Shown: positions 5,830 to 42,146 of the stretch, piece by piece
How positions within the stretch are numbered: position 1 is the stretch's first letter
Layout of the letters: each line of letters opens with the position of its first letter
Assembly: GCA_965201115.1 (NCBI GenBank)
Contig: OZ241745.1
Coordinates: 1,810,449-1,874,448, forward strand
Direction of reading: 5' to 3'
From: Alphaproteobacteria bacterium
GTDB taxonomy: Bacteria; Pseudomonadota; Alphaproteobacteria; UBA7887
Length of the DNA: 64,000 nt
The notes under the pieces: model-generated
What the model was told of the DNA's origin: nothing
The model's input: the letters and a program-made list of their open reading frames with translations, nothing else
Databases searched by the model: none
Position numbers and translations under genes: made by a program

Positions 5830-5890
5830 GACGGCCTCCCTGTTCGGCGTTGCGGCGCCACTATACCCGCCCGCGGCGGCGCGCGCATCG

Positions 5891-6313
5891 TCACCGCGCG
5901 GCGATGGCGATGACCCCGAGCGCGCCGATGGCCGCCGCCGACAGCGGCTTGCGCAGGCCCATATACCACGGCGGCGCGAGCCCCGCCCGGGCGGCGCGCG
6001 CGTCGATGGCGAAGGCCGCCGCGAAACCGCCGATCAGCAGCAGCGTGCGCAGGGTCGGGTGGACCGCCGCGAGCGCCACCCACGCGATGGCGACCGGCGC
6101 CGCGCCGGCGATATACCAGCCGCCGCGCGCGCCCGCCGCGGCGGCGAAGCCCCACAGCGCCGCCCCCGGCGCGGCGAGCGCCAGCGCGGCGAAATTGGTG
6201 GCGTGGAAAAACGCCGTCGCGCGCACCCAGTCGGGGCCGATGACCGCCGCCGCGGCGCCGAGAACCAGCGGCGCCGCGCTCGCCGCGCCGAGCCACAGCG
6301 CCGCCCGCGGCAT
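5891..6313 (-). CDS. DUF3429-like membrane protein
   Basis: Four hydrophobic segments, 'GAALWG', C-terminal 'PPWYMGLRKPLS'. Confidence 0.65.
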   Translation of the reverse strand: MPRAALWLGAASAAPLVLGAAAAVIGPDWVRATAFFHATNFAALALAAPGAALWGFAAAAGARGGWYIAGAAPVAIAWVALAAVHPTLRTLLLIGGFAAAFAIDARAARAGLAPPWYMGLRKPLSAAAIGALGVIAIAAR

Positions 6314-6323
6314 GGCGCGCCCG

Positions 6324-6608
6324 CTAGAGATTGTCCATGAACGCGGCGAGCTCGATGTCGCGGGCCGTCACGCCGCCCGCGTCGTGCGTCGCCAGCGTCA
6401 CCTCGACGCGGTTATGGACGTTGGTCCATTCCGGGTGGTGGTCCATGCTCTCGGCCTTGAGCGCCGCGCGGCACATCCACCCGAAGGCGGCGTTGAAATC
6501 GGCGAAGCGCCAGCTCTTGACGATGGCGCCGCCGCCCGGCGCGGCGGTCCAGCCGTCGAGCCCGGCAAGCGCGGCGGCGAGGGCGTCTCCGGCGAGTTTC
6601 TCCGGCAT
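6324..6608 (-). CDS. phhB: Pterin-4-alpha-carbinolamine dehydratase
   Basis: 'AESMDHHPEWTNVHNRVEVTLATHDAGGVT' signature. Confidence 0.93.
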   Translation of the reverse strand: MPEKLAGDALAAALAGLDGWTAAPGGGAIVKSWRFADFNAAFGWMCRAALKAESMDHHPEWTNVHNRVEVTLATHDAGGVTARDIELAAFMDNL

Positions 6609-6622
6609 TGTCGTCTCCCTGC

Positions 6623-6654
6623 GGCGAATCGGCGAACCGGCGAATCGGCGAATC
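6623..6654. repeat. 4 x 8-bp tandem repeat GGCGAA(T/C)C in the phhB/amidohydrolase divergent intergenic region
   Basis: ggcgaatc-ggcgaacc-ggcgaatc-ggcgaatc read directly. Confidence 0.8.
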
Positions 6655-6784
6655 GGTCGGCGGCGGGCGCGACCATACCCGCTTTCCGCCGCCTGCGCGA
6701 AGGGGCGCGCGAAGGCGCGGCGCGGTGTATGATGGCGCCCGCCGCCGCGACGCGGGAGAGCCCCCGAGCCATGAAGTGCGCGCC

Positions 6785-7972
6785 ATGAAATACGAGACCA
6801 TCTCCGCCGACTGCCATATCGACCTGGTATGGCTGCCGCCCGACCTGTTCACGGCCAACGCGCCCCCGGCGCTCGCCGATCGCATGCCCTACGTGACCCA
6901 GGGCAGGAAGGGGCCGGAATGGGTAAGCCGCAACGGCGCGCGTTTCGGCCTGCAAAACGGCATGGGCTCGGCGGGGCGCGAATACGTGCCCGGCCAGATC
7001 CGCCGCTCCGACCGCATGGCCGAAACCGGCCTCTACGAAGACGGCAAGCGGGGCGTGCGGCGCCTTACCGATCCCGGCCTGCGCCTCGCCGACCAGGACC
7101 GAGACGGGGTTCAGGGCGAGGTGCTTTACGGCATTCTCGGCGCCGCGCAGCGCCTCGGCGACCCGCCCGCCGCGACCGCGATGATGGAAATCTACAACCG
7201 CTGGCTCGCCGAATTCTGCGGCGCCCATCCCGCGCGCTACGCCGGCGTCGCCGCCATACCGGGCCACGACATCGCGGCCGCCGCGCGCGAGATCGAGCGC
7301 GTCGGCGCCGAGGGCGTATTGCGCGGCGTGGAGATCCCCCTCGCGCGCGGCATGGCGCCGCTCTACGATCCGCAATGGGAGCCGCTGTGGGCGGCCGCGG
7401 CGGCGGCGCGCCTGCCCGTCCACTTCCACACCATCGGCGATGCGCCGCCGCGGCTCGACGGCTTGCCGAAACTGCGCCAGCGCCAGGCGTGGGCGGTGTT
7501 CATCTCCGGCTTCCAGCTCGGCATGGCGCGCTATCTGATGGAGGTCGTGTTCGGCGGCGTGCTCGAACGCCATCCCGCCCTGACGATAGTGATCGGCGAG
7601 AGCGGAATCGGCTGGATCCCCTATGTTCTCGACCGCATGGACTTGGAGTGGGAAGACCAGTTCCGCGACCTGACGCTGACCATGAAGCCGTCGCTCTACT
7701 GGCGGCGGCAGTGCCGCGCGACCTATCAATCCGACCCCGTGGGCGTGAAACTGCTCGACGAACTGGGCGACGACAACGTGATGTGGGGGTCGGATTTTCC
7801 GCACCCCGACGGCGTCTGGCCCGACAGCCGGGAGTTCATCGCCCGCGAGCTCGGCCATCTTCCCGCCGCGCGGCGGCGCAAGATCGTTTGCGAAAACGCC
7901 GCGCGGCTATACGGTTTCCCCATCGGCGACGATAACGGCGAACGAGGCGAACGAGAGGAGCGCGCGCCATGA
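6785..7972 (+). CDS. Amidohydrolase_2 family protein
   Basis: 'ISADCHI', 'PVHFH', 'ESGIGWIPY', 'WGSDFPHPD', 'ENAARLY'. Confidence 0.9.
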   Translation: MKYETISADCHIDLVWLPPDLFTANAPPALADRMPYVTQGRKGPEWVSRNGARFGLQNGMGSAGREYVPGQIRRSDRMAETGLYEDGKRGVRRLTDPGLRLADQDRDGVQGEVLYGILGAAQRLGDPPAATAMMEIYNRWLAEFCGAHPARYAGVAAIPGHDIAAAAREIERVGAEGVLRGVEIPLARGMAPLYDPQWEPLWAAAAAARLPVHFHTIGDAPPRLDGLPKLRQRQAWAVFISGFQLGMARYLMEVVFGGVLERHPALTIVIGESGIGWIPYVLDRMDLEWEDQFRDLTLTMKPSLYWRRQCRATYQSDPVGVKLLDELGDDNVMWGSDFPHPDGVWPDSREFIARELGHLPAARRRKIVCENAARLYGFPIGDDNGERGEREERAP

Positions 7973-9003
7973 AACTGGGGCTTCTGCTGGGGCTGGCGAC
8001 GGCGGATTTCCGCATCGATATCGAGCGCATTCGCGAGGCCGAGGCGCTGGGCTGCGATTCGGTGTGGAGCAGCGAGGCCTACGGCTCCGACGCCGTAAGC
8101 CCGGCCGCGTGGGTGCTGGCCCAAACCTCGCGGATACGCGTGGGCACGGCGATCATGCAGATCGCGGCGCGCACCCCCGCCGCGGCCGCCGGAACGGCCA
8201 TGACCCTCGACAGGCTGTCGGGCGGGCGCTTCATGCTCGGCCTCGGCCCCTCCGGCCCGCAGGTGGTCGAGGGCTGGCACGGCATGCCCTATGCCGACCC
8301 GCTCGGGCGCATGCGCGAATACATCGCCATCGTCCGCGCCGTCATGCGCCGCGCCGCGCCGGTCGAGTTCGCCGGCGAGCATTACCGCCTGCCCTACGAC
8401 GGGCCGGGCGCCACCGGCCTCGGCAAGCCCCTCAAGAGCATGATGCGCGCCGCGCCGGCCATGCCCATCTACACCGCCGCGATCACCCCCGCGGGGCTGC
8501 GGCTGGCGGCCGCGCTCGCCGACGGCGTGTTCCCCGTTTTCGCCGATCCCGACCGCTGCGCCGCGTTCCGCGAGCCCCTCGAGCGGGGTTTCGCGGAAGC
8601 GGGGCGGGAGCCGGGCGCGTTCGACGCCGCGCCTTTCGTGTGGGTAAACATGGGCGCGGATGTTGCGGAGTGCCGCGCGCCCATCAAGCGCGACCTGGCG
8701 CTCTATATCGGCGGCATGGGCGCGCGGAAGAAGAACTTCTACAACGACTATGCGCGGCGCATGGGCTACGGCGGCGCGGCGGCGGAGATCCAGGACCTGT
8801 TCCTGGGCGGCCGCCGCGCCGAGGCCGCCGCCGCGGTCCCCGACGAACTGGTGGACGCCACATCGCTCGTCGGCCCCGCGGAGCGCATCGTCGAGCGCCT
8901 GCAGGCATGGAAGGAAGCCGGCCGCCGCGGCGACATAACAACCATGCTGCTGCGCGGCGCCTCCCCCGAGGCCCTCCGCGTAATCGCCGCGGAAATGCTC
9001 TGA
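7969..9003 (+). CDS. LLM-class (F420-dependent-like) oxidoreductase
   Basis: 'SEAYGSDA', 'GLGPSGPQVVEGWHG', 'LYIGGMGARKKNFYN'. Confidence 0.88.
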   Translation: MKLGLLLGLATADFRIDIERIREAEALGCDSVWSSEAYGSDAVSPAAWVLAQTSRIRVGTAIMQIAARTPAAAAGTAMTLDRLSGGRFMLGLGPSGPQVVEGWHGMPYADPLGRMREYIAIVRAVMRRAAPVEFAGEHYRLPYDGPGATGLGKPLKSMMRAAPAMPIYTAAITPAGLRLAAALADGVFPVFADPDRCAAFREPLERGFAEAGREPGAFDAAPFVWVNMGADVAECRAPIKRDLALYIGGMGARKKNFYNDYARRMGYGGAAAEIQDLFLGGRRAEAAAAVPDELVDATSLVGPAERIVERLQAWKEAGRRGDITTMLLRGASPEALRVIAAEML

Positions 9004-28499: not shown

Positions 28500-29005
28500 C
28501 GCGCACTTCCTGGGCGCCCGCACGTCGCCGACCCACCCGGCGCACTTCCTCTGAGTGTCTGCGCCGAAATGCTTGCCCCGCCGAAGGCGGGGCCCGGGAC
28601 CGCGGGCATCCTGCCCGCACGTTGCCCACCCGCGCGGCGCACTCCCTCCGAGTGTCTGTACTGAAATGCTTACCCCGCCGAAGGCGGGGCCTGGGACCGC
28701 GGGCATCCTGCCCGCACGTCAGCGCCCCGCGCGGCGCACTCCCTCCGAGTGTCTGTGCCGAAATGCTTGCCCCGCCGAAGGCGGGGCCTGGGTGCGCGGG
28801 CGTCCCCGCCCGCACGTTCCCGCAAGCCGCGATGTTGCCGTGGAAGCAAGGCCTTTCGCGCCCCCTCCCCGGCGCCCGTAGCGTCGAGACGTGCGGGCGA
28901 GACGCCCGCGCACCCAGGCCCCGCCTTCGGCGGGGTTGCGCTTCACCCCGGAGATCGCGCCGAAGGCGCGGACTTCCCGGGACCGCGGGCATCCTGCCCG
29001 CACGT
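28500..29005. repeat. Three ~97-bp tandem units built on the REP hairpin plus an inverted REP
   Basis: GCGCACT.CCTC.GAGTGTCTG..C.GAAATGCTT.CCCCGCCGAAGGCGGGGCC at about 28540, 28637 and 28734; inverted copy near 28919. Confidence 0.8.
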
Positions 29006-29114
29006 CGCCGCCCCGCGCGGCGCCCGTTGACCCCGCCCGCGCCGCCCGATATACCGTCGGCCGCCCCGCAACCGCCGCGGCGCGCCATACGCCACGAACC
29101 CCGCGAGCACGGCA

Positions 29115-30512
29115 ATGCCGAACGGCCCTATCTACCGTTTCGAAAACATAGGCCCGATCGCCAGCGCCGGGCTCGAGCTCGGCGACCTCACCATCGTCGC
29201 CGGCCGCAACAACACCGGCAAAACCCGGTTGGTCCACGCGCTCTACGGTTTCCTGGCGGGCTGGCCTCATGTCGACCGCTACGGACCGGCCGTCCCGGGA
29301 TACTCTTCGCCCGTGTTCGATCGGCTCGTCGACAGCCTCGCCGAACGCGGCGAGGCGTCGATTCCCATGAACCGCAAAACGCTCGCCGGGGAGCGCAAAA
29401 CCATCCTGCGGCAAATATGCAAGGTCTTTTCCGACTTCGGCTTCGCCGACGTCTTCAACGCCCCGGAGGACGATTTTTCGGAAACGCGCCTCGAAATCGA
29501 TCTTGCCTCCCCCGCGCCCGAATGCAGTGTATCGAAGGATTTCCCCGCGCCCCGAACCGGGGCCGCCGCTATTCGTTGCGACGGCAAGACGATAGACGCG
29601 ATCCTCGATACGGGGCAGCCGCCGCCGGGCGGGGATTCCACCCGCTTCCGCATGGCGCTGGCAAAGGCGTATATCTCGTTCCTGTTTCCGGAATTTCCGA
29701 TGAGGCCCTTTCCGCTTGCGTCCGAACGACACGGAATTTCGCTCTTCTACAAGGATCTCGACCGCAACCGGAGCGACATCGTGGACGCCCTGCGGAAAGC
29801 CCGGCGCGATGAAAGAACGAATATCGCCGGCTTGCCCGACTTCGCGGATTCGGCGTCCGGCCGCTGCTCCCTTCCGGTTCGCGACAACACAGTGTTCGCC
29901 AGGGACATAACCCGGCTGCCGGAAACGCGCGGCGGCGCCCGCGGCAGGAAACTCTCCGGAAATATCGGCAAGATGCTGCGGGGCGCATACCGCGTCGCCA
30001 ACGACGATATACAATTCGTTCCCGAATCGCCCGATGGCGATGACATTGCGCTCCCCCTCTACCGCGCATCCTCCTCGGTCCGCGAACTCTCCGATTTCTA
30101 CTTCTTCCTGCGCCGCGCCGCCGACCGCTACGATCTGCTTGTCATCGACGAACCCGAAAGCCATCTCGACACCGCGAATCAGATCCGCATGGCGCGCCTG
30201 CTTGTCCGCGCGGTAAACACGGGCTTGAAAGTGCTCATCACGACCCACAGCGATTATATAATCAAGGAACTCAACAATCTGATCATGTTGAACAGCCTTG
30301 ACGATACTTTTTTGGAAAAGCATGGATACAGGACTGGCGACAGACTCGACCCGGGCAGAATACGGGCATACGTCGCCGGGAACAACAGCCTCGCCGAATC
30401 CCGTATCGACGAATTCGGCGTCGAAATGCCGGTCTTCGACAATACGATCAACGATATAAACTACGTGGCCAACGATTTGGCGGCCTGGCTCGAAGCGCGC
30501 TCCCATGACTGA
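29115..30512 (+). CDS. ABC-type ATPase (AAA_15/AAA_21-like), putative defence/TA component
   Basis: 'FENIGPI', Walker A GRNNTGKT, signature-like 'ASSSVRE', Walker B 'LVIDEPESHL', 'ITTHSDY'. Confidence 0.85.
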   Translation: MPNGPIYRFENIGPIASAGLELGDLTIVAGRNNTGKTRLVHALYGFLAGWPHVDRYGPAVPGYSSPVFDRLVDSLAERGEASIPMNRKTLAGERKTILRQICKVFSDFGFADVFNAPEDDFSETRLEIDLASPAPECSVSKDFPAPRTGAAAIRCDGKTIDAILDTGQPPPGGDSTRFRMALAKAYISFLFPEFPMRPFPLASERHGISLFYKDLDRNRSDIVDALRKARRDERTNIAGLPDFADSASGRCSLPVRDNTVFARDITRLPETRGGARGRKLSGNIGKMLRGAYRVANDDIQFVPESPDGDDIALPLYRASSSVRELSDFYFFLRRAADRYDLLVIDEPESHLDTANQIRMARLLVRAVNTGLKVLITTHSDYIIKELNNLIMLNSLDDTFLEKHGYRTGDRLDPGRIRAYVAGNNSLAESRIDEFGVEMPVFDNTINDINYVANDLAAWLEARSHD

Positions 30513-31224
30513 CGCCGGATTGGCGCAAGCCATTGTCGCGTTGGGCCTTGTTCCAGACAATTATCTGACCGCGCCCGAGAACGGCAAACTCGCGCTCGAA
30601 GACAAGACCGCAAATATGACAATGGAGATCATCGGCCCGCCCGCGGGAGCGGTCGGGATTCGCATGGAGAACCTGGGGCATCTGCCCGGTATCCGGCCGA
30701 AGTTGCGGCTCGATCGCGAGCGCACGATCAGGATATGCGATTTTCTCGTGCTCGCCGAACTGGACGACGTATCGTACGCCGTATTCATCGAGATGAAGAG
30801 GACGCAGTCCGATGAAGAAAGACCGAAAGAACAGTTATTGTGGTCGGCGCCGATTTTACATTACCTCCAGCGCTTGTGCGCAATCGCCGGCCGATTCTCG
30901 TCGACTAAGACGCAGTCTGCCGAGGAACGACCGCAAGAGAAACTGTTGTGGTCGTTGCCGATTTTACATTACCTCCGGCGCTTGTGCGCGATTGCCAGCC
31001 GATTCTCGTCGACTAAACCGCGAATTCCTGCACACGCCGGGATTGTGGAACGTTATTGGTTAGTCAGCGAGTACGGCGGGCGCAGACAACTCGACAAACA
31101 AACTGTTAGTAGAATCCGACAGACAGAGATTGCCCGAGAGCCAGAGATGGTAACCTATCGAGGCATTACAATCGCTAAACACGTTGGATTGTCGGTTCCC
31201 TTCTCCATGCTTGTGGAACGGTAA
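30505..31224 (+). CDS. Hypothetical partner of the ATPase, possible PD-(D/E)XK nuclease, with internal 36-aa duplication
   Basis: 'ICDFLV..VFIEMK..EQL' resembles a D..EXK..Q core; overlaps the ATPase stop; 108-bp repeat 30802-31017. Confidence 0.55.
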   Translation: MTDAGLAQAIVALGLVPDNYLTAPENGKLALEDKTANMTMEIIGPPAGAVGIRMENLGHLPGIRPKLRLDRERTIRICDFLVLAELDDVSYAVFIEMKRTQSDEERPKEQLLWSAPILHYLQRLCAIAGRFSSTKTQSAEERPQEKLLWSLPILHYLRRLCAIASRFSSTKPRIPAHAGIVERYWLVSEYGGRRQLDKQTVSRIRQTEIAREPEMVTYRGITIAKHVGLSVPFSMLVER

Positions 31225-31519
31225 ATTCGGATGTGGCGGGACACGGCCCAAAAGCGTTGGGCGATTAAGTCAGGATGCAGGCTCGCCGATCGGTCGTGAA
31301 ACTGCGCGCACGGCGAGCCGCCGATTCGGCAACGCACAGCCGACGGGAACGACAAGTAGTATGCGATCCACGCAGATGCACTTCTTGGGGGGCATCTTGC
31401 CCGCGCGCCGGCGATCCGCGCGACCACTCGGATATAGGCACGCGCCCCGGCAACGCCGTGGCGCATGCCTCCGCAAGTGCCAACGTATTGGAATTCTCAC
31501 GCATATTTGGAATACTCGT

Positions 31520-32086
31520 CTATTCGACCCAACCAGACAGGCATGAGCCGCTTCTGTTGCGTCCGAACTGACGACGACTATTGTCCGGCGGAGGAGTGCC
31601 AGCCCGTCTCTCGAACGCGCGATGAACCCAACGTTTGACAATTCCCGCGAAGTCCGTGCGCGGCCAATCGTAAACGCGTGCATAGGGATCAACCCCGTCG
31701 CAGTTGTCCGCCAACCGCGGCGGCATCAAGCGAACGCGGTATTTGCCCCGGCCGAAATCGTCGTGGTTGGGAAGGGTTATGCCCACGAGACCGCAACGCG
31801 GATTCCAGGAAGTGTGACGCAAGCTGGAGCCGATTTCCCAATCCACATGCTTTCTCTGCCATGTGCAGGGGCCGACCAAAACCACCGTCACGGTCGCATC
31901 GCGTATGAACCGCTCGCGAATTCGCTGACGAATGGCGTCGGTCTTCGAGACGGTGTCGTCTATGTCGCCGTCCCCGACAGACTGGTCGACTATATCGGTT
32001 CCGATTTGGGCAACGAATTTGTCCTTCCAGCGCTGATCGTCGTGATGGAAGCTGATGAAGACCCTGTGTCTGGGTACCGCGTTCAT
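31520..32086 (-). CDS. TIR-domain protein (ThsB/DUF1863-like)
   Basis: 'HRVFISFHHDD', 'IRERFIRDATVTVVLVG', 'RKHVDWEIGSSL' with the catalytic Glu. Confidence 0.88.
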   Translation of the reverse strand: MNAVPRHRVFISFHHDDQRWKDKFVAQIGTDIVDQSVGDGDIDDTVSKTDAIRQRIRERFIRDATVTVVLVGPCTWQRKHVDWEIGSSLRHTSWNPRCGLVGITLPNHDDFGRGKYRVRLMPPRLADNCDGVDPYARVYDWPRTDFAGIVKRWVHRAFERRAGTPPPDNSRRQFGRNRSGSCLSGWVE

Positions 32087-32598
32087 TTCTCTCCTCCTGT
32101 CGTCTCAAGGTTGGTGAGGTCTTCGACGCCGGCCATTTCCGCCAGCATGCGGCTGTAACTACGCAACTTTTCCTGCAAGGCCGCCAATTCGTCCCGAAAC
32201 TCGTGTTTCCGTGCATCGTCTTCGAAAGCGCCTTCCAACGACAACCGATGCCACTTTGCCGTGAACGGACGTACTACCTGGTTCAATACAGGTATGGCAA
32301 CCTTGCTGAAATCGGCGGCGTTCGGCCCGTGTCTGCGCAAGATTTCCCTCGTCATCGGAAAAACAGCGTAAACGCTATCCAACGCAGTCTTGTCGTCTCC
32401 ATCGCGAAACGGCAACGGTTGCGTCGCAATTCTGGTCAACAACTCCACATACAGCTCCCACGCGGCGCCGCGATTGGCGTCGGTTAAACGTATTCTCGCC
32501 TGCACAAAACCCGCGCCAATACTTATATTCTCGAAACCATGCCTGTCGAACAGCGTTCGCAGCGCCATTCCGGAGTTTCGCCTGAACAGATGCCTCAT
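32083..32598 (-). CDS. Predicted helical hypothetical protein translationally coupled to TIR
   Basis: GGAGA RBS before ATG 32598 (alternative 32568); 'AAWELYVELLTRIATQPL..DDKTALDSVY..TREILR..VLNQVVRPFTAKWH'; ATGA overlap with the TIR gene. Confidence 0.7.
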   Translation of the reverse strand: MRHLFRRNSGMALRTLFDRHGFENISIGAGFVQARIRLTDANRGAAWELYVELLTRIATQPLPFRDGDDKTALDSVYAVFPMTREILRRHGPNAADFSKVAIPVLNQVVRPFTAKWHRLSLEGAFEDDARKHEFRDELAALQEKLRSYSRMLAEMAGVEDLTNLETTGGEK

Positions 32599-33131
32599 CG
32601 ATCTTCTCCAAAACCCGTAGCTTGCCGCCGATATTCGAACCGCACACGGTAACCGCGACCGGCGTATCCTTGCCGGACGCCGCGTGTCCATGGTGGCCGT
32701 AGCGGGTTCCGCTGCAACCTCGTTCGTCGCCGCGCGGCCATACGCCCGCATTTTTCCGCAAAGCGTTGCAAAAATAGCACAGTGTTGCGGGACGCCAAGC
32801 AGTGCGGCCGACAATGTACGCGGTCCGAGCGTCGCAGGCGCCGCCGGCCCCCGGGGCGATGGCGGCCTGCCCCGATCCGGCCGCCAGGCGCGAACGAGAA
32901 ACCGCGAATCGATTCGCCCAATCGGCGAATCGTGTGTACCTGCAGCCGTCTTGGGGGCGGAACGCCCAGGCGCCGTTGCGCCGTGGTTGCGCTCTGGTAG
33001 CGCGTCCGCCCCCCCCCCCCCCCGCTGCCCTGCGGTCGATAAGCGCATCGCCTGCCAACGGTAGCGCATTCCCGCTGACGCGCCATCCGCGCCGTTGGTC
33101 GCGCAACGCGCCGCCTTGGCGCCGTAAATCG

Positions 33132-34691
33132 CTACGAACGCCGTTCGTCGCCTGCCTTGTCGGGCTTCCATGCAACGATCCGGCGCGTTCGCGCCTCAGC
33201 CCGTATGCGGCAAAGCGCCTCGCCCGGCGGGAGCGCCGTCAACGACCTGCCGCCGCCGAATATATGCCGAACGGGACCGGGGCGCGCCTGTGTGACGAAC
33301 GCTACCGTTAGCCCCATATTGTCGAGAAACTCCTCGTCCTGACCCTCGAAGTCATCCGGCGACTGCGAGACCAGCATAAGGACCCCGCCCTTCGATCTGC
33401 TCATGCGAACCAGGTTCGCCAACGCCGGCAGTCGAGTCCGAAGAATGACATGCGCCTCGTCCAACAGGCACACATGCCGAATAGTCTGATAGCCATCGAC
33501 AATCGGGGCATCGGAGAGCGAGTTTAGCCACCGATCCAGCGAATCCAGCGTCAAATTGACGATAAACCGCCTGACCTCGGGAGTGCTGTCCTGCGGCAGC
33601 CGGATAATCCACCGCTTGCCGAAGAAATCGGATGGGCGCATCGTCGGTCGGAAGAGCGTGAACTGCGTCATCTCGTTGAGCGTAGCCATCAACTCGTCGG
33701 GTCTTTGCTCTCTCTCCGCATACTCGGTTGCGAGCGCTCTCGCGACATGGTCGATTTCCGCCGGTCTCTCGTCCGTCTGCCCGCGCAATGCACTCTGGAT
33801 CGCTTCGCGCAGCGCATCCATTTGCATGCCTCCCGGCCTGCTCTCCTTGACGCGCGAGATAGACTCTCGTATCCGGCTCGCCGCTTCCGCGACCCCTATA
33901 TCATCCTGTTTCTCGATAGCCAATACGTCCAACGGAACCGGCCCCCGCGGAGGCGCAACCACCTCCGCGCCAATCTCGCCGGCAAGTCGTTCCGAAAGAT
34001 CGCCCTTGAAGTCGAAGGCCAAGAACGGCGCGGCGCACTGCTTGTGAAGGTGCGTGAGTATGGTAGTCGCCGTATATGTCTTGCCCGAATTCGTGCCGCC
34101 CATAATCGCCATATGCGGGCTCCCGCCGGATATGTTCAACGGGAACGCCACCTCCTCCCCGGTGTCTGCGTCTTGCGCCACCGGTCCTACCGGCAACATG
34201 ATTCTCCTCCGCGACGCTTCCGGAATGTTACTGCCATTGCCGACAGTGTCGGTCCCATCGCTGGGCCCTGTCGACAGGTTCGCCAAATCCGCAAGGTGGA
34301 CAACAAAAACACCGAGATCCTCGCCGGCGTCCCGCCAATCCTGGGCCAGCAGCTCCGCGCCGCGATGCCAGTGCGCAGCCACCAGCGCTCGAAACTCCCT
34401 GATGCCCAAATCCTGCTGCCCCGAATGCTGGACGATGAGCGCAAGCCACGCAGCCGGCGTCGCGCCATCGCCGAACATCTGCTGGCCTCTTATGCTCCGA
34501 GCCATATCTTCGCTGCTACCGACGGCTTCGGGCGCGCCCGCCACCGACAATGATCGCGCAACGGCCAAGCGCGCGCCCAAATAGCGCACGTTATGTCCGA
34601 GCCGCCTAAGCACGTCATGACATTGGGCGTCCGCCGTCCTCGTGGTGCGATACTCGGTGTTGACCGCTTCCATAACGTGTATGGGCATCAC
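33132..34691 (-). CDS. dndE: DndE-like N-terminal domain fused to a HerA/FtsK/VirB4-type ATPase
   Basis: N-terminal 'ARLAVARSL..FGD..AHWHRGAELL' is DndE-like; C-terminal 'PHMAIMGGTNSGKT', 'FDFKGD', 'LLDEAH', 'RSKG', 'SQSPDDF'; overlaps dndD stop. Confidence 0.72.
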   Translation of the reverse strand: MMPIHVMEAVNTEYRTTRTADAQCHDVLRRLGHNVRYLGARLAVARSLSVAGAPEAVGSSEDMARSIRGQQMFGDGATPAAWLALIVQHSGQQDLGIREFRALVAAHWHRGAELLAQDWRDAGEDLGVFVVHLADLANLSTGPSDGTDTVGNGSNIPEASRRRIMLPVGPVAQDADTGEEVAFPLNISGGSPHMAIMGGTNSGKTYTATTILTHLHKQCAAPFLAFDFKGDLSERLAGEIGAEVVAPPRGPVPLDVLAIEKQDDIGVAEAASRIRESISRVKESRPGGMQMDALREAIQSALRGQTDERPAEIDHVARALATEYAEREQRPDELMATLNEMTQFTLFRPTMRPSDFFGKRWIIRLPQDSTPEVRRFIVNLTLDSLDRWLNSLSDAPIVDGYQTIRHVCLLDEAHVILRTRLPALANLVRMSRSKGGVLMLVSQSPDDFEGQDEEFLDNMGLTVAFVTQARPGPVRHIFGGGRSLTALPPGEALCRIRAEARTRRIVAWKPDKAGDERRS

Positions 34692-36769
34692 CTTGTCTCC
34701 TCTATGCTTTCAGATTCCACAGTAGTGACGGCAACCCCGTCCGCCGCACGGACTCGCAACTGGTACGCTGCCCCAATACGGTCGCGGATCGCCTCGAGTT
34801 TGTCGCCAACCACCTCTTCGTCCGTCGACAACAACACAACTTGCCCTGGGCGTCTGAGGAATGTCCTAAGCACTCCAAACCGGTGTTCAGTGCTTAATCG
34901 GGCAAGCGGCGTGTCAACTATGAAAGGGAAGTCTTGACCGCTCACCTGAGTAATCGCCATAATCAGGGCTTGAGTGAAAATTTGATTGGCGCCAGCCGAT
35001 TTCTCTATCCCCTGTATATCCTCGCCCTTTGCGTTCAGCATCCTTACCTCGCATTCCGGAGATATCGCAATTCGGTCGATACGATCCTCCATCTGCGCCA
35101 TCGATTTCCATGCTTCGGTCATCGCGGTAGCCACCATGTCGACCTGTGTCGGCACAGCCTCCTTTAAAATATTGTCGATTAAAATGGCAACGTCATTGGC
35201 CTTCTTCGCTTGTTGAAGAGCGGGCGCGTAACGGCCGACGGCCTCGGCGTAACGGCCCTGATCCTGACGAAGCTTGGCGAGTTCGCCCACGGCTGCCTCA
35301 CGAGCTCTTGTTGCCGTGTTGCGGCGTTCGCGTACACGGTTTATCTCGTCGCTCACTTCTATGAGTCTGTTCGTCAGCGGTTCGATCTCGGGAATTACGG
35401 CCTCAAGATTCAGCCTTTCCCCCTTCACAATATCGGCGCGGGATGCCGAAGATTGAAAACGCCCAACCAATTCTCTCAACTCCGTGGCCGTTCGCCCGGC
35501 TGCGCTGTCCAAACGCTCAAGCGCATGCTCTCTACTGAGTCCTTTCAATCCCGAGTGCAGATAGTAATCGGGGCAGCCTTCGGGCGCGGGATGCCACAGC
35601 GCTTGCCATGCGGATCGCGCGGCGTCCACGATTTCGAGTTCGCGTTCGCCAACTACCGGCGGCGACAAGATTCCGAGTCGGGTAGAGAAGTCGGTCAGGT
35701 ACCGGTCAAGGCGATCATTGCCTTGGTTTCTCGCCATCTCCCAGTCCTCTCGCGCCTTTTCGGCCCGCAAGCGTTCTACTGTTGCGGTCCGCAGTTCGGC
35801 TCCGCAAAGGGTTAATGCTATGTCGCCCGATAGCAATTTCATAAGTTCGTCGAATGCCTTGCTCGATGCCGTTCTGTATCTTTCTTCCTGTTTCACCAGA
35901 TCGGCCACTTCGGCCATTGTGCCTTCGCCGCCGCTCCCCAATCGTTGCGCGAGTTTGTCTCGTTCCGATTCCAAGCCATCGAGGATCGTGGAGGCATCAT
36001 CGATAATGTGCTGTTGTTTTTCTTGTTCGGCGTCCAGTCGTTCAATATCTTCCTTGATCGCGGTCATCTTTTGATCCGATGGAGCAACCGAATTGGCTCG
36101 TCTCGCGGTCGCGTAGCGGCCCAACGATTTCTGTAGTTCGTATAGTATAGGCAATCCCAAGAGACCCTCTATCCCCCGTCGTATCTGGGCGGTCATGTCG
36201 CGGTGCGCATAACGCTGAACCTGCTCGCCGTCGAACATGAAAAATTCGGCCAAATGGGGAGGAAGAAAATTGCGTGCAACGAATTGTCGATGCCACCCGT
36301 CGGAGTCCGCCGTTGCCGCAACGGGGACGATCAGGGGTTCGCGCTCACGCCCCTCGTATATCTGCAACTGATCCTCGTTGGGCCGATGGTCGCCTTTCGC
36401 GCTAAAATACCAAGTTCGAACAAGCTCTATTCGCTCGCCGTTATCGCCTTCGAACACAAGCGTCACGGCGCAGCTCGGCTTGCTGTGCCCGGATAACCGT
36501 CGGTGAAGCGCGCCTTCGAGAAACTTGCTGTACGAAACGAGCGGACGGTCCGCTCGACTATCGACGGCTGTGTTGCGGGCGCGAGGCAGCAGCGGCAGCC
36601 CGTCTCTACCGAACAAACCCAGAATAACGGCCTCGAAAAACGACGTTTTCCCGGCCTCGTTTGGCGCGCGGACCAAGATCACGTTGCGATTGCCGTCGGG
36701 CGGCGGAAACTCGAAGACCGCGTGCCGGTACGAACGCCAGTGTCGTAGTTCGACGGTACGCAGATGCAT
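34688..36769 (-). CDS. dndD: DNA sulfur modification protein DndD (SMC-like ATPase)
   Basis: Walker A 'APNEAGKT', 'FFMFDGEQ', long coiled coil, 'SAGANQ', 'FIVDTPLARLS..HR', 'QVVLLSTDEE'; downstream of dndC. Confidence 0.88.
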   Translation of the reverse strand: MHLRTVELRHWRSYRHAVFEFPPPDGNRNVILVRAPNEAGKTSFFEAVILGLFGRDGLPLLPRARNTAVDSRADRPLVSYSKFLEGALHRRLSGHSKPSCAVTLVFEGDNGERIELVRTWYFSAKGDHRPNEDQLQIYEGREREPLIVPVAATADSDGWHRQFVARNFLPPHLAEFFMFDGEQVQRYAHRDMTAQIRRGIEGLLGLPILYELQKSLGRYATARRANSVAPSDQKMTAIKEDIERLDAEQEKQQHIIDDASTILDGLESERDKLAQRLGSGGEGTMAEVADLVKQEERYRTASSKAFDELMKLLSGDIALTLCGAELRTATVERLRAEKAREDWEMARNQGNDRLDRYLTDFSTRLGILSPPVVGERELEIVDAARSAWQALWHPAPEGCPDYYLHSGLKGLSREHALERLDSAAGRTATELRELVGRFQSSASRADIVKGERLNLEAVIPEIEPLTNRLIEVSDEINRVRERRNTATRAREAAVGELAKLRQDQGRYAEAVGRYAPALQQAKKANDVAILIDNILKEAVPTQVDMVATAMTEAWKSMAQMEDRIDRIAISPECEVRMLNAKGEDIQGIEKSAGANQIFTQALIMAITQVSGQDFPFIVDTPLARLSTEHRFGVLRTFLRRPGQVVLLSTDEEVVGDKLEAIRDRIGAAYQLRVRAADGVAVTTVESESIEETR

Positions 36770-36975
36770 CAGACCGACTCCTCGGCGAACACAGTGTCGA
36801 AAACACGGTCGAACTCATCCCACAGGCCTGCTTTACGCAGCTTCCCCCGCTGTTCGACTTCGGCGTTCACCAAGGCTTCGAAAACAGCCATGGAAATGCC
36901 GGCATCTTCGCACTTCTTTCGCACGAGCTGTCGTCCCTCGTCGGTCTCGAGCAGCACAACGGTATTACCGGGCAT
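36769..36975 (-). CDS. Small Dnd-associated protein (68 aa)
   Basis: TAATG overlap with dndC stop and TGATG overlap with dndD start; 'LVRKKCEDAGISMAVFEALVNAE..RKAGLWDEFD'. Confidence 0.7.
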   Translation of the reverse strand: MPGNTVVLLETDEGRQLVRKKCEDAGISMAVFEALVNAEVEQRGKLRKAGLWDEFDRVFDTVFAEESV

Positions 36976-38144
36976 TAGCCAACCCTCCGGGAATATACGA
37001 ACTGCTCCGTATGCCGACCTGCCAAACGCCCAGCCATGGCGAGCGCGTCTTCCGCCCACAAGCTGCGTATGCGTTCGACCTCGGCATCGGACACGAGTGC
37101 GCGGTCGATGCGATTCTGCAATCGCAATAGCTTATCGAGTATTTCTGCGCGGGTAGCAAGCGTAAACGGGCCGGGTATATGCGCGCCGTTCGCGGCGAAC
37201 GTCACGCGACCGTTGCGACGCCGCGCCAACCGTCGATGCGGGTCGTTGCGAATCCGTACGAGCCAGTCCCGAAAATCGAGCAGCGGCGTGAACTCGTCGA
37301 AGCCTGCATTGACGAAGCCCCGCAAGCTGCGGTCCTTGTCGACCACCGTGCAGGTCCAGCACCCGAAGCGCGGTGAAGTGCTGCCGCACGAAGGCGCGTC
37401 CGAGAGGCTGGTAACGACGGGGCACTCCCCGCCGCCGGCGTTCCGGTACAGCCTGATCAAGGCGTCGTGCGAACCGCCCCAAGGGGGCGCTTCGGTCGCC
37501 AGAAATTCCCACACGTCGTCGGTGCTTATTTCGACTATCGGTCGGAAAACAAAGCAGTTTCTCAAGTCGCTGTGGCGATTGAGGCGTTCGCCGTTGTCGT
37601 AACGCGCGACGCTGTTCGCCCGCATGGCGCTCTCGTCGCGCCGAACTCCCAGAAGCAGGATCGCTTCGCCCGCCGCATCCGCCTGTTCCCGGATATACGC
37701 GCTGGTGGGCAGTATCTTCATGCGATCCGTACACCACCGGAACGCCCGATTCGGCGACGGATAGCCGCGCCCGATCAGATTGACCCAGAACGTATGGTCG
37801 GGGTCGGGCGCCGTCGTGGCGACCGTAACGGGCAGATGGAAGGCCTTGGCGGCGGCGCGAATTTCGTCTTGTACCTTGCGGATATGCCCGATCACCAAGG
37901 GGCTTTCGACCAACGTGTCGTTGGCGACGATATGCACGCGCCGGCGCCGGTCGCTGCGCGGCAGCGACAGCAGATGCTCGACGACCAGATGGGCTACGAC
38001 CGTGCTGTCTTTCCCGCCGGAGAAGCCCACGATCCACGGCCGCGCATGCTGTTCGGCGTATTCGTCAGCGATCTCGGCGCGAATCGCCCGCCACGGCGCG
38101 GCGCCTGCCTCACGCTCGGCCGAATACGCTGCTTCCGCGATCAT
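36975..38144 (-). CDS. dndC: DNA phosphorothioation sulfurtransferase DndC (PAPS-reductase family)
   Basis: 'WIVGFSGGKDS', 'NDTLVESP', 'FWVNLIGRGYPSP', 'RWCTDRMKI', 'GECP..SCG..RFGCWTCTVV'. Confidence 0.95.
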   Translation of the reverse strand: MIAEAAYSAEREAGAAPWRAIRAEIADEYAEQHARPWIVGFSGGKDSTVVAHLVVEHLLSLPRSDRRRRVHIVANDTLVESPLVIGHIRKVQDEIRAAAKAFHLPVTVATTAPDPDHTFWVNLIGRGYPSPNRAFRWCTDRMKILPTSAYIREQADAAGEAILLLGVRRDESAMRANSVARYDNGERLNRHSDLRNCFVFRPIVEISTDDVWEFLATEAPPWGGSHDALIRLYRNAGGGECPVVTSLSDAPSCGSTSPRFGCWTCTVVDKDRSLRGFVNAGFDEFTPLLDFRDWLVRIRNDPHRRLARRRNGRVTFAANGAHIPGPFTLATRAEILDKLLRLQNRIDRALVSDAEVERIRSLWAEDALAMAGRLAGRHTEQFVYSRRVG

Positions 38145-38789
38145 GCCGACATTTCCCGCGCCCAACGCGATGGACCGACAGCGGCGTCCGCCCGTCCGCG
38201 CTGGCGCGTATACCGCAGCCGGCGCGGCGCCGCAACCCGGTACACACGGGAAATCGTATTTTTTGCCGCGGCATATGCGGCGCGCTCGCCCGCTGTCGCG
38301 CCGAAGGCGCCGACTTCCCGGCGGGACCGCGGGCGTCCCGCCCGCACATCCCCACTGAGCCGAGGGTCGCCGACGGGCGCGACGCCCACGCTTCCCCGAA
38401 AATCCCTCGCCGCGCGGACGCGCGCGGGCGGGGACGCCCGAATTCCCCGCCAGTCCGCGCCTTCGGCTCTGGCGATCGAGACATCCGCGCGCCTATACGG
38501 CGCCTATAGCAGCCGGGCGAGAAACAAGACCGGTGCTTACGATTCGCGAATCGCACGATAGCGGCTCGTCAGCGCCGCCGGGTTGGCGAAGGCGCGGTAT
38601 AGCCGCATGATACTCAAATCGACAGAGGAGCCAACAAGCCCGAATTCTTCAACGCGCCGGTAACCGCCGTAGCCTGCGCTGCGGATCGGGAGATCGCCCG
38701 TCGCAACGTCGATAGCCCCGATACGAAGCATCGGATCGAGACTCTCGACACGAATCGGCAAACAGCATCTACGCTCCGCTCACGATCCG

Positions 38790-40496
38790 TCATCGATCTT
38801 CCCAATTTAAAAGCCTCTCGACGGCCGAATCGGTTACCTCTCCGCCATCGAGAAGCACTTGGGGTATCCCGGCGCCATAAAAACGCACATTCTCCTTCCC
38901 GAACAGATCCTGCGCCGCCTCCAAGGTCGGGCGGGGCGACTTCCCGGAATCCAAATTCTCAATAATCTTTGGCCATTCCGACGGACCGAGCCATCTCGCA
39001 GCCTGATCCGTTCCCACAATCACGCTGCACTTCACCGGTTTGTTGTCGGGACCGTGGCTGCGCCGGGCGGCAAAGAAGGCGCGATAGTCCACGTCGTCCG
39101 GCGGAAGCCTATAGCCCATCAACACAATGTGGTCGGCGTTCTCGACGGTGACCCGCAGATCGCGCCAAATCTCTTCCAGGAACGGCGGCAATGCGTCCTT
39201 GAAATTGCTCTGCATTACCGTTGGCGTATGATGCGCGTAGGTCAATTCGTCGCAATGCACGCAGGCGCGTGCATCCACTTCCCCTTTGTTCCAAGCCTCG
39301 AGCTCCTTGTCGTTCCGACGATAAAACGGGTTGGATTCGCCGTCGGATTCGACGAACGCCTTGAGCGGCGGCGGGGGAATCAATGTACGCGAATACAATT
39401 CCCACTCCCCGCTCTCATCGGAATCGCCCACGTACGACGATAACTTGCCGCAATTGGGGCATTCCCGCCACCACAGGCAGCCATGAGGCAACAGGAACTT
39501 GCCCATCCGGATGCGATCTTCGGACTCGTGATCTTCGTCGTTCAGACGCTGCGCGGCCGATTCGTTCATCGGATGCCACGGCGTTTCGCCGTCATACTTC
39601 CTCTTGTCGAAGCGGGACGTGCTGACGAAGTGTCCAAGATCATGGAAGATTTTCAACCTGCGTGCCGGACAGCCGATATGTGGCGCGCCGGGACTCTTGT
39701 TCAAATTACGGTTGGCAACGAACTGGCACCACAGGGCAATGGGGTCGTAGTTCATGCTGGCGAAAGCGACATCGCCCATGTAGAATTTACGGGCCCTGTG
39801 AAAATTACGGTCGTCGCCTTTCCCACCGCTGTTGGCCAGCGCCATGCCTTGCCGCTGCATGCGCCGCCCCAGCGCCTCGGCGAAGTCGTAGTGTTTGTGT
39901 ATATCCTCGGTCTCTTGCTCGCATACGCGGCGCCAGTCCACGTAGAACAACGTATTCAACAGCATCCGCAAGGCGTTGCGCGCCGCCGACACCCGTAACG
40001 GTGGCAGGAAAACTTCGCCTTTCACGCGGAATCCGTGGCGGCTCCGGCTGTGCATGTCCAGGATATTGAACAGATCGACGAGTTGGATCTCTCCTTTCGG
40101 CGGCGCCGGGCAGATGCCGATGACGAGTTTCAAGGCGGGCCAGTCGTATAGGGTACACAGATCGATAATGCGGTACCGAATGGCTTCATCGTCGGCGCCC
40201 GCCCGCCAGTTGCGGCGCATGGCGCTCATCCGATCCTCGGAGATGGAGGAGAGAGGGTGTTTGTCGCCGACGCAATCGCCCAAGATAATCAACAGGTCGC
40301 GAAGCGCCGATACCCAGCGTTCGCCGACTTCGCGACCCAACGCGTCGCGAACACGCCGGTCCAGCGGGCCGTGTTCGCGATTTCGCCCGACCGAGATCGT
40401 GCTGACGAAGCGAGACTGCCGCTCGGTCGTGGACATGCCGACCGACGCAGTCGCGCCGGCGCCCCAGAAGACGACTGTTCCACGGGGATTGCTCAT
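38790..40496 (-). CDS. SIR2-like domain protein with Zn-ribbon (putative NADase defence effector)
   Basis: 'VVFWGAGAT', 'SMNYD', 'LPHGC', CxxC pairs (CPNC, CVHC), 'IVLMGYRLPPDD'. Confidence 0.75.
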   Translation of the reverse strand: MSNPRGTVVFWGAGATASVGMSTTERQSRFVSTISVGRNREHGPLDRRVRDALGREVGERWVSALRDLLIILGDCVGDKHPLSSISEDRMSAMRRNWRAGADDEAIRYRIIDLCTLYDWPALKLVIGICPAPPKGEIQLVDLFNILDMHSRSRHGFRVKGEVFLPPLRVSAARNALRMLLNTLFYVDWRRVCEQETEDIHKHYDFAEALGRRMQRQGMALANSGGKGDDRNFHRARKFYMGDVAFASMNYDPIALWCQFVANRNLNKSPGAPHIGCPARRLKIFHDLGHFVSTSRFDKRKYDGETPWHPMNESAAQRLNDEDHESEDRIRMGKFLLPHGCLWWRECPNCGKLSSYVGDSDESGEWELYSRTLIPPPPLKAFVESDGESNPFYRRNDKELEAWNKGEVDARACVHCDELTYAHHTPTVMQSNFKDALPPFLEEIWRDLRVTVENADHIVLMGYRLPPDDVDYRAFFAARRSHGPDNKPVKCSVIVGTDQAARWLGPSEWPKIIENLDSGKSPRPTLEAAQDLFGKENVRFYGAGIPQVLLDGGEVTDSAVERLLNWEDR

Positions 40497-40849
40497 GGGG
40501 CGGGGATGGTAATGCCCACGAGTTTTAACCGTTTTTTGCCTTTCTTCACCTTGATCTTCACTTTACATTGCTTCGTGGCCGCGTGAGTGAGGGTGTCGTA
40601 AATACCCGCAGAGACGGATTTACCCAGTCTCTTAAACCGGATACATACAACCTTCTTCGTGTCGCATTTCGAAACGCGCGCGGGTTTTGTCGATCCCGCA
40701 CGATCACGAACGAACACGGCGTAAAGATGGCCGTCGCACCGTACGGAGTGATCGCCGTCGGGGATGAAAAACACCTTGACTTTGGCATTCTTCGTCGTCC
40801 AAGACCACTGCACGTTCACGGTTCCCATTGACGTGTATCTACTCATCAT
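40493..40849 (-). CDS. Small basic hypothetical protein coupled to the SIR2-like gene
   Basis: 118 aa, Lys-rich, beta-rich; GGAG RBS; ATGA overlap with the SIR2 start. Confidence 0.55.
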   Translation of the reverse strand: MMSRYTSMGTVNVQWSWTTKNAKVKVFFIPDGDHSVRCDGHLYAVFVRDRAGSTKPARVSKCDTKKVVCIRFKRLGKSVSAGIYDTLTHAATKQCKVKIKVKKGKKRLKLVGITIPAP

Positions 40850-41194
40850 TCAGTCTCCCGTTGGGCAGATGCGATTGCGCCCCCCCGTCGCCCTACGGAA
40901 GCGCACCGATTCGGAGTTTGGCACATCGCGGGGCTGCGTGCAAGCTCGCTCGTAGGAACGTGCGCACGGGATATGCGAAGGCGCCGCATGTAGTGGCCCG
41001 ATTCAGCAGGCGCGGCGACGATTCGCCAGCGGGCCATCGCGATGCCCAATTTAGCGAGTTCGAGTTTCGCCGCGTGCTTTCGTTGCACTACCAAACGCCT
41101 TTCCCCACCTTGGCGATGGCGTTGTCGACGGTCCCGGTTGCGGATATTGCGGCAACACGACGCCAGCCGTCGGCATGTCTGGCCGGGAATCGAT

Positions 41195-41600
41195 GCGGAC
41201 CAACCCCGGAAATCGGGAAACGGCGTGAATTCGTCGAAGCCATGCGGGCTATGGTCGCTATCGCCCGCCGCGCACGGCCTGCCCCGCTCGCTACGCGGCA
41301 GCAGATGCTTGACGACCGGATGGGCTGCCACCGTGCTGTCTTCCCCGCCGGAGGGGCCCGCGATCCGGGGCCGCGCGTGCGGTTCGGGGCGCCCGGCCGC
41401 GACCCCGGCGCGAATTGCCCGCCGCGACGCGGCGCCTGCCTTATGCTCGGCCGGATATGTTGCTTCCGCGATCATGTCGATATTTCCCGCGCCCAACGCG
41501 ATGGACCGACAGCGGCGTCCGCCCCGCCCACGCCATCGTGTGTGTACCGTAACCGGCGCGGCGACGCAACCCCGTACACGCGGGAAATCGTACTTTATTT
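41195..41600 (-). pseudogene. Degenerate duplicate of the dndC upstream region and 5' end with internal deletions
   Basis: 41285-41595 aligns by eye to 37945-38260 (e.g. TGCTTCCGCGATCATG.CGA.ATTTCCCGCGCCCAACGCGATGGACCGACAGCGGCGTCCGCCC); 41200-41242 aligns to 37262-37304 ('GFDEFTP..DFR.W'). Confidence 0.85.
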
Positions 41601-42146
41601 TCTGTCTCGCAACACCGCGCCCGTCCTGCGCCGCGCCGAAGGCGCGGACTGCCCGGGATCGCGGGCGTCTCGCCCGCGCGTTTCCGCAAGGCGCGCCCTC
41701 GGCGGGGAGGCGTGTCCCGGCCCCGCCGAGCCCGACAGCGCCGCCGCCACAGCCCCCGGCGCCCGCCCCTCGCACGATGCCCCCCGTAACCCTGACGCCG
41801 TCCGCGCGGCGCGGGAACGCCGCGCCTTCCCGCCCCGGGCCCGGCGGAGCCCCGCAATGCCCCGCAACCGCGCCCCGGAACGGCCCGGGCCCGGCCGGCG
41901 CGCGGGCGCGATATCCGGGTGCGCCGGCCTCCAGGCCGGCATCCCCCGGGCCCCGCCGTCCCGGGAGGCGCTCCCCGAACGATCCACGCCAGCCCGCCCC
42001 GGAGCCCGGCGGATCCCCGCGGATCCCCGCAACCGCGCCGCGCCCGCCGGCGCCGCGCCACCGTGCGCAAACGTGCGGGCGAGACGCCCGCGCACCCGGG
42101 AAGTGCGCGCTTGCGGGGGCGGGGGGCGGCGGGCATAGTGGCGGGC

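Follow-up and report, generated by a model that had tools for sequence, protein, structure and literature searches.

Gene layout and domain composition

The stretch of DNA analysed here, called the window below, covers 64,000 nucleotides of an alphaproteobacterial genome (Alphaproteobacteria bacterium, UBA7887; GCA_965201115.1, contig OZ241745.1, positions 1,810,449-1,874,448) and contains a four-gene cassette that is probably a complete, solitary DNA phosphorothioation (PT) modification system of the DndEi type, located in a low-GC defence island. The genome is a single contig of 3,674,140 bases and is 99% complete; coordinates given below are window positions. The G+C content of the window is about 73% and falls to 57-66% in a stretch at roughly 30000-42000. 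On the minus strand of this stretch, four consecutive open reading frames (ORFs) correspond to dndC, a small ORF, a dndD-type gene and a dndE fusion, with the following features.

36975..38165, minus strand: dndC core, PP-loop ATP pyrophosphatase/sulfurtransferase, canonical C-terminal segment absent (TIGR03183; PAPS_reduct, PF01507)
36769..36975, minus strand: small subunit of 68 amino acids (aa), detached C-terminal segment of DndC (PADLOC PDLC02662, profile comparisons)
34688..36769, minus strand: DndD-related ABC ATPase, 693 aa (TIGR03185 below cut-off, AAA_23, PADLOC)
33132..34691, minus strand: dndE::herA/ftsK fusion, DndEi-type (Pfam, NCBIfam and PADLOC matches)
34281..34691, minus strand: DndE domain of the fusion, residues 1-137, predicted tandem ribbon-helix-helix (RHH) fold (profile and fold matches)
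33135..34223, minus strand: HerA/FtsK-class ATPase domain of the fusion (Foldseek match to the DndH C-domain, conserved motifs)

An earlier note on this DNA had described four genes with overlapping stop and start codons, and this is what the junctions show. They read TAATG, TGATG and TGATG, each with a one-base overlap of stop and start, so that the four genes are translationally coupled. The dndC product is 396 aa long when counted from a TTG codon, and the likely start is the ATG at 38144, which is residue 8 in this numbering. The 68-aa frame starts at an ATG inside a 96-aa ORF (36769-37059). The fusion measures 519 aa from a GTG, or 518 aa if it starts at the ATG of position 34688; entry P0001 of the protein collection has the shorter form (100% identity), and use of the GTG would make the dndD/fusion overlap 4 bases. 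Scans for promoters and terminators gave no excess over shuffled sequence (4 vs 2.8 expected; 2 vs 10.1 expected).

The fusion of a DndE-like domain to an ATPase is real, with both halves supported by Pfam, profile searches, AlphaFold and Foldseek. In Pfam, residues 15-118 match DndE (PF08870; 25.1 bits, cut-off 25) and residues 178-312 the HerA central domain (PF01935), and the PADLOC DndH models match residues 193-456. The AlphaFold model has a mean pLDDT of 90.5, and its sole low-confidence stretch is the Gly/Ser/Thr/Asp-rich segment of residues 140-155, the Gly/Ser linker of the earlier description. Modelled alone, the N-terminal 142 residues reach a pLDDT of 93, and the top ten Foldseek matches of this domain are all DndE (7x4e, 4lrv, 5wtu; TM on target 0.63-0.78), with TraY from the F relaxosome as the next match. 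A profile built from 68 N-terminal domains also finds 7x4e DndE in the PDB (E 5.4e-5). By profile and modelled fold, the N-terminal domain is a DndE with a predicted tandem RHH arrangement, as had been proposed. Since the fusion is the only DndE match in the genome, the DndE function must come from it.

For the whole fusion model the best Foldseek match in the PDB is the C-domain of DndH (7es4; E 7.7e-18, TM on target 0.79, 380 columns); HerA, VirB4, SIR2-HerA complexes and TrwB come after it. The motifs GGTNSGKT, LLDEAH, RSKG and SQ recognized earlier are all present, and their core residues are conserved in an alignment of 77 fusion sequences (A3): G198, G203, K204 and T205 of Walker A, E412 of Walker B, R429, R432, S433, K434 and G435 of the RxxRSKG motif, and Q443 are invariant, and D411 is conserved in at least 90% of the sequences. 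The model and these motifs assign the domain to the HerA/FtsK class, with a predicted P-loop fold, Walker A and B motifs, an arginine finger upstream of strand 4 and a Gln sensor-1. Following the description of this class in PMC10853773, R429/R432 would serve as finger and Q443 as sensor.

The 693-aa protein contains an AAA_23 domain (Pfam) and aligns end to end with TIGR03185 (25-672 vs 25-635 of 650), at a score of 203.8 bits, short of the 245.85 that the cut-off requires. In PADLOC, 'PbeC' (PDLC02736, E 5.6e-196) is the best model, also end to end, with the DndD models next; automatic annotation would probably mislabel the cassette as Pbe. No CxC motif occurs in the translation. Among ten window proteins scanned with Pfam, NCBIfam and PADLOC, neither an HKD-SF2 helicase (PbeA) nor another pbe gene was found, in agreement with the absence of pbe genes remarked on before. 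'DndD-related' is the safer name for this ATPase.

The dndC product scores 363.3 bits against TIGR03183 (cut-off 290.4) and is the single DndC match in the genome by profile search. Its SGGKDS PP-loop and the cysteines C145, C204, C248, C260, C269 and C272 are invariant across 61 DndC homologues. The TIGR03183 match covers positions 4-364 of 447 only; DndC is not encoded here as a full-length single polypeptide, and the remainder is the 68-aa ORF, whose presence the earlier note had recorded and left unexplained. This ORF belongs to no Pfam family and matches the PADLOC DndC model PDLC02662 at positions 407-460 of 481. When 61 members of the small-ORF family were searched one by one, 40 matched PDLC02662, 31 a second DndC model, 22 TIGR03183 and eight the DndC-type model PRK06850, which also matches the window DndC; two matched an unrelated model. 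An hhalign comparison of the family with four canonical full-length DndC proteins aligned it to their C-terminal region only (probability 77-89%, E 2e-5 to 2.5e-6), in one of them at residues 420-472 of 530, and in a class-mate genome the DndC model aligns across an in-frame TAA up to position 445.

The same separation is found in the related loci described below. A stop cuts the small ORF off from dndC in all 65 loci that could be assessed, with an ATG immediately after the stop in 24 and a one-base overlap in 15 (13 further loci were not assessable and one has two matches far apart). A frameshift or assembly error was considered as the origin of the split and is ruled out, because stop and restart are conserved in 65/65 loci in varying frames; the split is thus a conserved one and not a sequencing error. 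In the Bacteroidota loci of the system, DndC is a single ORF of 448-458 aa in five of the five loci having the gene, and the small-ORF profile matches its last ~45 residues with E values of 7e-4 to 0.022 for four of the loci and of 0.37 for the other one. A search of 1.84 billion protein representatives with this profile gave 140 clusters, nearly all of which consist of proteins of 39-131 aa that stand alone, with three longer ones (175, 327 and 481 aa), and no canonical DndC at E <=1e-3; the link between the small ORF and DndC therefore rests on family models and on profile-profile comparison. A region search with the canonical DndC C-terminus returned 2 proteins only, and no DndC structure was found in the PDB by sequence search. 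Complex prediction for the DndC core with the 68-aa protein gave a score of 0.00 and weighs neither way.

By these comparisons the 68-aa ORF is the C-terminal segment of DndC in detached form. An adaptor role towards DndD is probable, and both the separate state of the segment throughout the proteobacterial clade and the small ORF of one locus without dndC point to it. This locus (L120, ~4941-8477, Flavobacterium profundi-type) has a DndD-like gene and a DndE-motor fusion, and just before dndD a 61-aa ORF with a weak match to the small-ORF profile (E 0.035); it is apparently a DndC-less derivative that retains the DndC tail. A separate DndC tail offers a clean handle for dissecting how the DndC-DndD-DndE complex assembles.

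Other Dnd genes were sought in the whole 3.67-Mb genome by profile search. DndB was not found, and DptF, DptG and DptH (TIGR03238, TIGR03236, TIGR03237) gave no match. The DptH search works, as two strong matches (>1200 bits) among 401 genomes of the phylum demonstrate, and DptH was found in none of 40 other cassette-carrying genomes. Four cysteine-desulfurase matches are present, all below the DndA cut-off; the best of these (427 bits) lies ~1.4 Mb from the cassette. By sequence they are distant, IscS-type desulfurases, and a dedicated dndA is missing from the predicted gene set; none of the 79 related loci has a cysteine desulfurase within 10 kb of the fusion. The absence of dndA, dndB and dndFGH that had been reported for the window thus extends to the complete genome, and the suggestion that IscS may replace DndA is in keeping with the desulfurases found.

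Distribution and relation to known systems

Of 8000 candidates scored in a protein search with the fusion, 427 are homologues at E <=1e-3. The 120 homologues listed are 447-524 aa long and 52-100% identical to it; all but 4 carry PF08870, and several are named 'DndE family protein'. For the comparison of loci one genome per species was used, and 116 relatives were confirmed among 179 matched stretches, of which the best 80 were kept, representing 79 distinct loci. These are mostly from Alpha- and Gammaproteobacteria, with a few from Dehalococcoidia, Poribacteria, Rhodothermales, Planctomycetales and Ekhidna. By tblastn with the window proteins the fusion is found in 79 of the 79 loci; for DndD the count is 76, for the DndC core 69 and for the small ORF 67. 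Save in one locus, the genes stand in the order dndC - small ORF - dndD - fusion; DndD lies directly upstream of the fusion in 76/79 loci, and most inspected losses of cassette genes are contig ends or broken copies. A four-gene order that recurs in 79 loci is not a chance arrangement. In the locus with the deviating order, from a Poribacteria MAG (L061, 5414-8355), dndC is located on the downstream side of the fusion, and after dndC comes a GmrSD-type DUF262/DUF1524 nuclease with additional matches to SspE models.

One of the loci is located on the megaplasmid of Methylorubrum extorquens AM1 (L086, NC_012811.1, ~1013870-1018821), where the same four-gene block occurs with identities of 65%, 47%, 36% and 42%; the PLSDB gene table has no feature there. 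A tblastn search of plasmids with the ATPase domain returned only this copy and one weak Rhizobium match. No paper linking M. extorquens with phosphorothioation was found in a literature search. The AM1 cassette opens the system to testing in a tractable model methylotroph.

The fusion architecture is not new. According to a review (PMC6435447, for Barbier 2013 and Zheng 2016), an extended DndE called DndEi is present in Riemerella anatipestifer ATCC 11845, Flavobacterium indicum and Kordia algicida. The extra domain of the R. anatipestifer protein is reported there to have helicase and ATPase activity and to be essential for PT, since inactivation abolishes the modification, and the ATPase is described as strongly stimulated by GAAC/GTTC DNA, i.e. 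the modification motif. Rare dndEi genes are mentioned for Prevotella and Bacteroides (PMC7464106). On the computational side, Rakesh, Aravind and Krishnan (2024, PMC10853773) describe a 'clade-3' of HerA/FtsK ATPases that is common to some DndH proteins and to DndE fusions adjoining a DndD-related ABC ATPase. This is the exact architecture and gene neighbour seen in the window, and the kinship with DndH agrees with the top structural match 7es4. The DndE fusion receives one sentence in the available text of that paper, which cites Krishnan et al. 2020; the word DndEi has no occurrence in this text, and a split DndC is not mentioned in its passages on the fusion. Literature searches for DndE with HerA, FtsK or a fused ATPase found no further treatment of the fusion. 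The computational and the experimental literature thus describe the same thing, with no mutual citation in the texts compared.

The window fusion can be connected to the Bacteroidota proteins over its whole length. Among 401 Bacteroidota genomes sampled, 10, the centre genome included, match A3 at E <=1e-10. In the nine other Bacteroidota genomes the matching proteins are 517-528 aa long, colinear with the window fusion at 22-27% identity (tblastn) and preceded by a DndD-like gene. Clusters named 'DndE family protein' occur in Flavobacterium profundi, Winogradskyella, Dokdonia, Nonlabens, Daejeonia, Mucilaginibacter and others, and a search from one Bacteroidota fusion adds Chryseobacterium and Flavobacterium restrictum. 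Aligned by hhalign with a Chryseobacterium 'DndE family protein', A3 matches with a probability of 99.6% (E 5.3e-24, 468 columns, residues 12-496 vs 3-510), which includes both domains. The end-to-end alignment and the colinear matches indicate that the fusions of the proteobacterial clade and those of Bacteroidota form a single family. The sequence of R. anatipestifer DndEi itself is not among the named homology matches.

The cassette shares with DndEi systems the combination of DndE and a helicase/ATPase domain in one polypeptide, next to dndC and dndD, and its fusion is homologous over both domains to the flavobacterial and Chryseobacterium proteins. It differs in that the fusion belongs to a proteobacterial-type clade, with the low identity given above to relatives of the published protein, and in that DndC is divided into a core and a 68-aa protein, whereas it is a single ORF in Bacteroidota. 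With canonical DndABCDE, or DptBCDE plus IscS, it has in common the DndC chemistry module, a DndD-type ATPase and the DNA-binding fold of DndE, and sulfur presumably also comes from an IscS-type desulfurase. However, dndA and dndB are missing, DndE carries a motor as an extension, the DndC tail has its own gene, and the DndD is below the equivalog cut-off. DndH resembles the fusion in its ATPase part, but it is a protein of ~1700 aa with nuclease and other domains that are absent from the fusion, and the genome has no DndF, DndG or DndH. PbeABCD and CxC-ABC systems likewise pair an ABC ATPase that contains a coiled-coil insert with a DndE cognate (PMC10853773), whereas this cassette lacks a CxC motif, an HKD-helicase PbeA and a disordered PbeB and has a DndC core instead.

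Presented in the earlier note as a variant operon, the fusion is therefore already on record, noted in PMC10853773 and characterized biochemically as DndEi according to PMC6435447. The note had allowed for an architecture already characterized together with a dndFGH module elsewhere that explains restriction; the first part applies, through DndEi, and the second does not, as dndFGH is not encoded in the genome. The discovery value is small, because the fusion is named 'DndE family protein' in RefSeq, is already known from comparative genomics and was reportedly tested by biochemical means as DndEi. The split DndC is a small added twist on a known DndEi-type cassette.

Possible roles of the motor and of the cassette

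The genes adjoining the related loci bear on the role of the motor. Flanking ORFs were clustered; in 73 of the 79 loci, 1.5 kb or more of sequence is available downstream. No conserved upstream gene was found across the 79 loci in this clustering, and the window's six flanking proteins recur in none of them (tblastn). A DGQHR protein with a small partner, on the same strand and within 4 kb downstream, is present in 29/79 loci. In 15 of these the DGQHR protein is TIGR04172, 'DNA phosphorothioation-associated DGQHR protein 1' (494.6 bits), preceded in at least 13 by a ~180-aa membrane protein. The DGQHR protein of the other 14 is DndB-like (PF14072, E 2e-22), and in at least 10 it is preceded by a ~162-aa protein with a GIY-YIG-like motif set; the family assignment of the latter is weak, with PF01541 matched by 4/12 members (best E 0.003) and UvrC as the best PDB match (E 0.11). 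In the remaining loci varied defence genes or plain housekeeping genes adjoin the core. A relic of the downstream DGQHR/small-partner pair was not detected in the window, where tblastn gave chance-level matches only. In 10 loci (cluster 4; L032, L035, L037, L040, L074, L079, L080, L081 and L084 are named) a ~354-aa membrane-anchored class I methyltransferase (PADLOC mad2-like, E 3e-20) is encoded just downstream on the opposite strand.

In view of the above, a catalytic scheme can be proposed for the cassette. Persulfide sulfur would be supplied by a housekeeping IscS/NifS-type cysteine desulfurase encoded ~1.4 Mb away. The sulfur chemistry would be performed by the DndC core with its PP-loop ATP pyrophosphatase fold and conserved cysteines, with the C-terminal segment of DndC supplied as the 68-aa polypeptide, probably as an adaptor towards DndD; the split itself is observed. 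The DndD-related ABC ATPase and the DndE domain may form the DNA-handling core, as in their families, and DndC, DndD and DndE are likely held in one complex, in line with a report that IscS is purified together with DndC, DndD and DndE and that DndE tolerates a C-terminal tag (PMC4611135). The HerA/FtsK-class ATPase attached to DndE would then spend ATP on unwinding or translocating DNA at the target site, an activity that would be required for modification if the domain acts as it reportedly does in DndEi. The proposal of the earlier note that the motor is recruited into the DndC/DndD machinery would fit this reported behaviour (PMC6435447). As a cognate restriction module was not found, the most likely role of the cassette is that of an orphan modification system.

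A solitary DndEi-type modification cassette is thus the reading that we consider probable, and several points weigh against it. PT in this organism is predicted from the genes alone. The ATPase is under the NCBI DndD cut-off and has PbeC as its best PADLOC label, the Pfam DndE score of the fusion is borderline (25.1 vs 25.0), and identity to the Bacteroidota fusions is only 22-27%. The tie to the tested R. anatipestifer DndEi would run via architecture, taxonomy and other flavobacterial fusions only. In addition, the closest structural match of the ATPase is DndH-C (7es4), a restriction motor, so that a role beyond modification is conceivable. This last point leads to an alternative in which modification and restriction are combined: the DndH-like motor would also be a translocase or PT sensor that hands unmodified DNA to a variable neighbouring effector, either the DGQHR protein with a nuclease or membrane protein in relatives or, in the window, possibly the ThsB-type TIR pair or the SIR2-like protein that flank the cassette. 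The match to a component of the DndFGH restriction complex, the absence of dndFGH from this genome and of DptH from the other carriers, and the downstream pairs in 29 loci, one type with a nuclease-like GIY-YIG partner, all favour such an arm. However, the flanking proteins of the window do not recur in the 79 loci, housekeeping genes directly adjoin the four-gene core in many of these, the core contains no nuclease domain, and the fusion and the TIR pair lie ~490 bp apart, with apparently non-coding DNA between them. Moreover, the sole experimental report on this architecture, as summarized in PMC6435447, assigns the motor to modification. We regard a restriction arm as unlikely, and the sensor for a non-canonical effector that was suggested earlier finds no support in the window. 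A broader version of the idea, that the proteobacterial DndEi clade is a self-sufficient PT immune system, is more doubtful still. Here the motor would drive modification of self DNA, keep translocating on unmodified DNA and recruit an exchangeable downstream two-gene effector (DGQHR with the GIY-YIG-like nuclease, DGQHR with the membrane protein, or here the pair of an unknown protein and ThsB-type TIR), with the 68-aa piece as a switchable adaptor between the chemistry and motor modules.

Two other explanations question the activity or the identity of the cassette. It could be an inactive passenger of a decaying island, a view to which a degraded second dndC fragment 3 kb upstream and the lack of a dedicated dndA lend some credit. 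Yet all four ORFs are full length compared to their homologues (98-100% coverage), the catalytic motifs are intact and the coupled junctions are preserved, which makes inactivity improbable. The PbeC match raises the option of a restriction-like module of the Pbe/CxC type that is no modification system at all, since this model matches the 693-aa protein end to end and above any DndD model. This is very improbable: the ATPase has no CxC motif, the ten proteins scanned include no PbeA or other Pbe protein, and a full DndC core is translationally coupled in the cassette. Rakesh et al. also call the partner of DndE-HerA fusions 'DndD-related' (PMC10853773), and the PbeC label is probably an artefact of the training set.

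Genes and repeats around the cassette

The low-GC stretch is a defence island, and the neighbouring defence genes are systems independent of the cassette. The following elements were found in and around it; a tRNA gene that could mark an integration site was not detected in the window.

41161-41496, minus strand: degraded second dndC, 3 kb upstream of the live dndC
37964-38321 and 41295-41656: direct repeat
40493-40849, minus strand: 118-aa protein without family match
38790-40496, minus strand: 568-aa SIR2-like protein
32083 to ~32640, minus strand: protein of ~175-185 aa preceding the TIR gene
31520-32086, minus strand: ThsB-type TIR protein (PF08937, E 1.6e-16; PADLOC PDC-M50B)
29115-31224, plus strand: PD-T4-4-like gene pair
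28516-29019, 38281-38440 and 41616-42116: GC-rich repeated palindromic elements

The dndC relic joins residues 1-75 (65% identical) immediately to residues 272-314 (47%), so that it has an internal deletion and is truncated. The direct repeat of ~360 bp consists of the dndC 5' end plus upstream DNA, at 80-86% identity, and the SIR2-like gene pair is situated between both copies. The 568-aa protein of this pair has no Pfam, NCBIfam or PADLOC match and is nearest to SIR2-like clusters by language-model features (score 0.97); its gene overlaps that of the 118-aa protein by 4 bases, and the two are possibly an independent NADase-type defence pair. A 4-base overlap also joins the TIR gene to the gene preceding it, whose product is nearest by features to unnamed ~160-aa clusters, with DUF6650 as a lead at 0.85. 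The PD-T4-4-like pair has an A subunit (E 5e-82) and a partner that is weakly PDC-M47B-like, and in its second gene a 108-nt stretch is duplicated in tandem (30801-31016, 84% identical). The palindromic elements, among them three 97-nt units in tandem at 28516-28806, lie on either side of the low-GC island and of its sub-blocks and may be markers of recombination joints.

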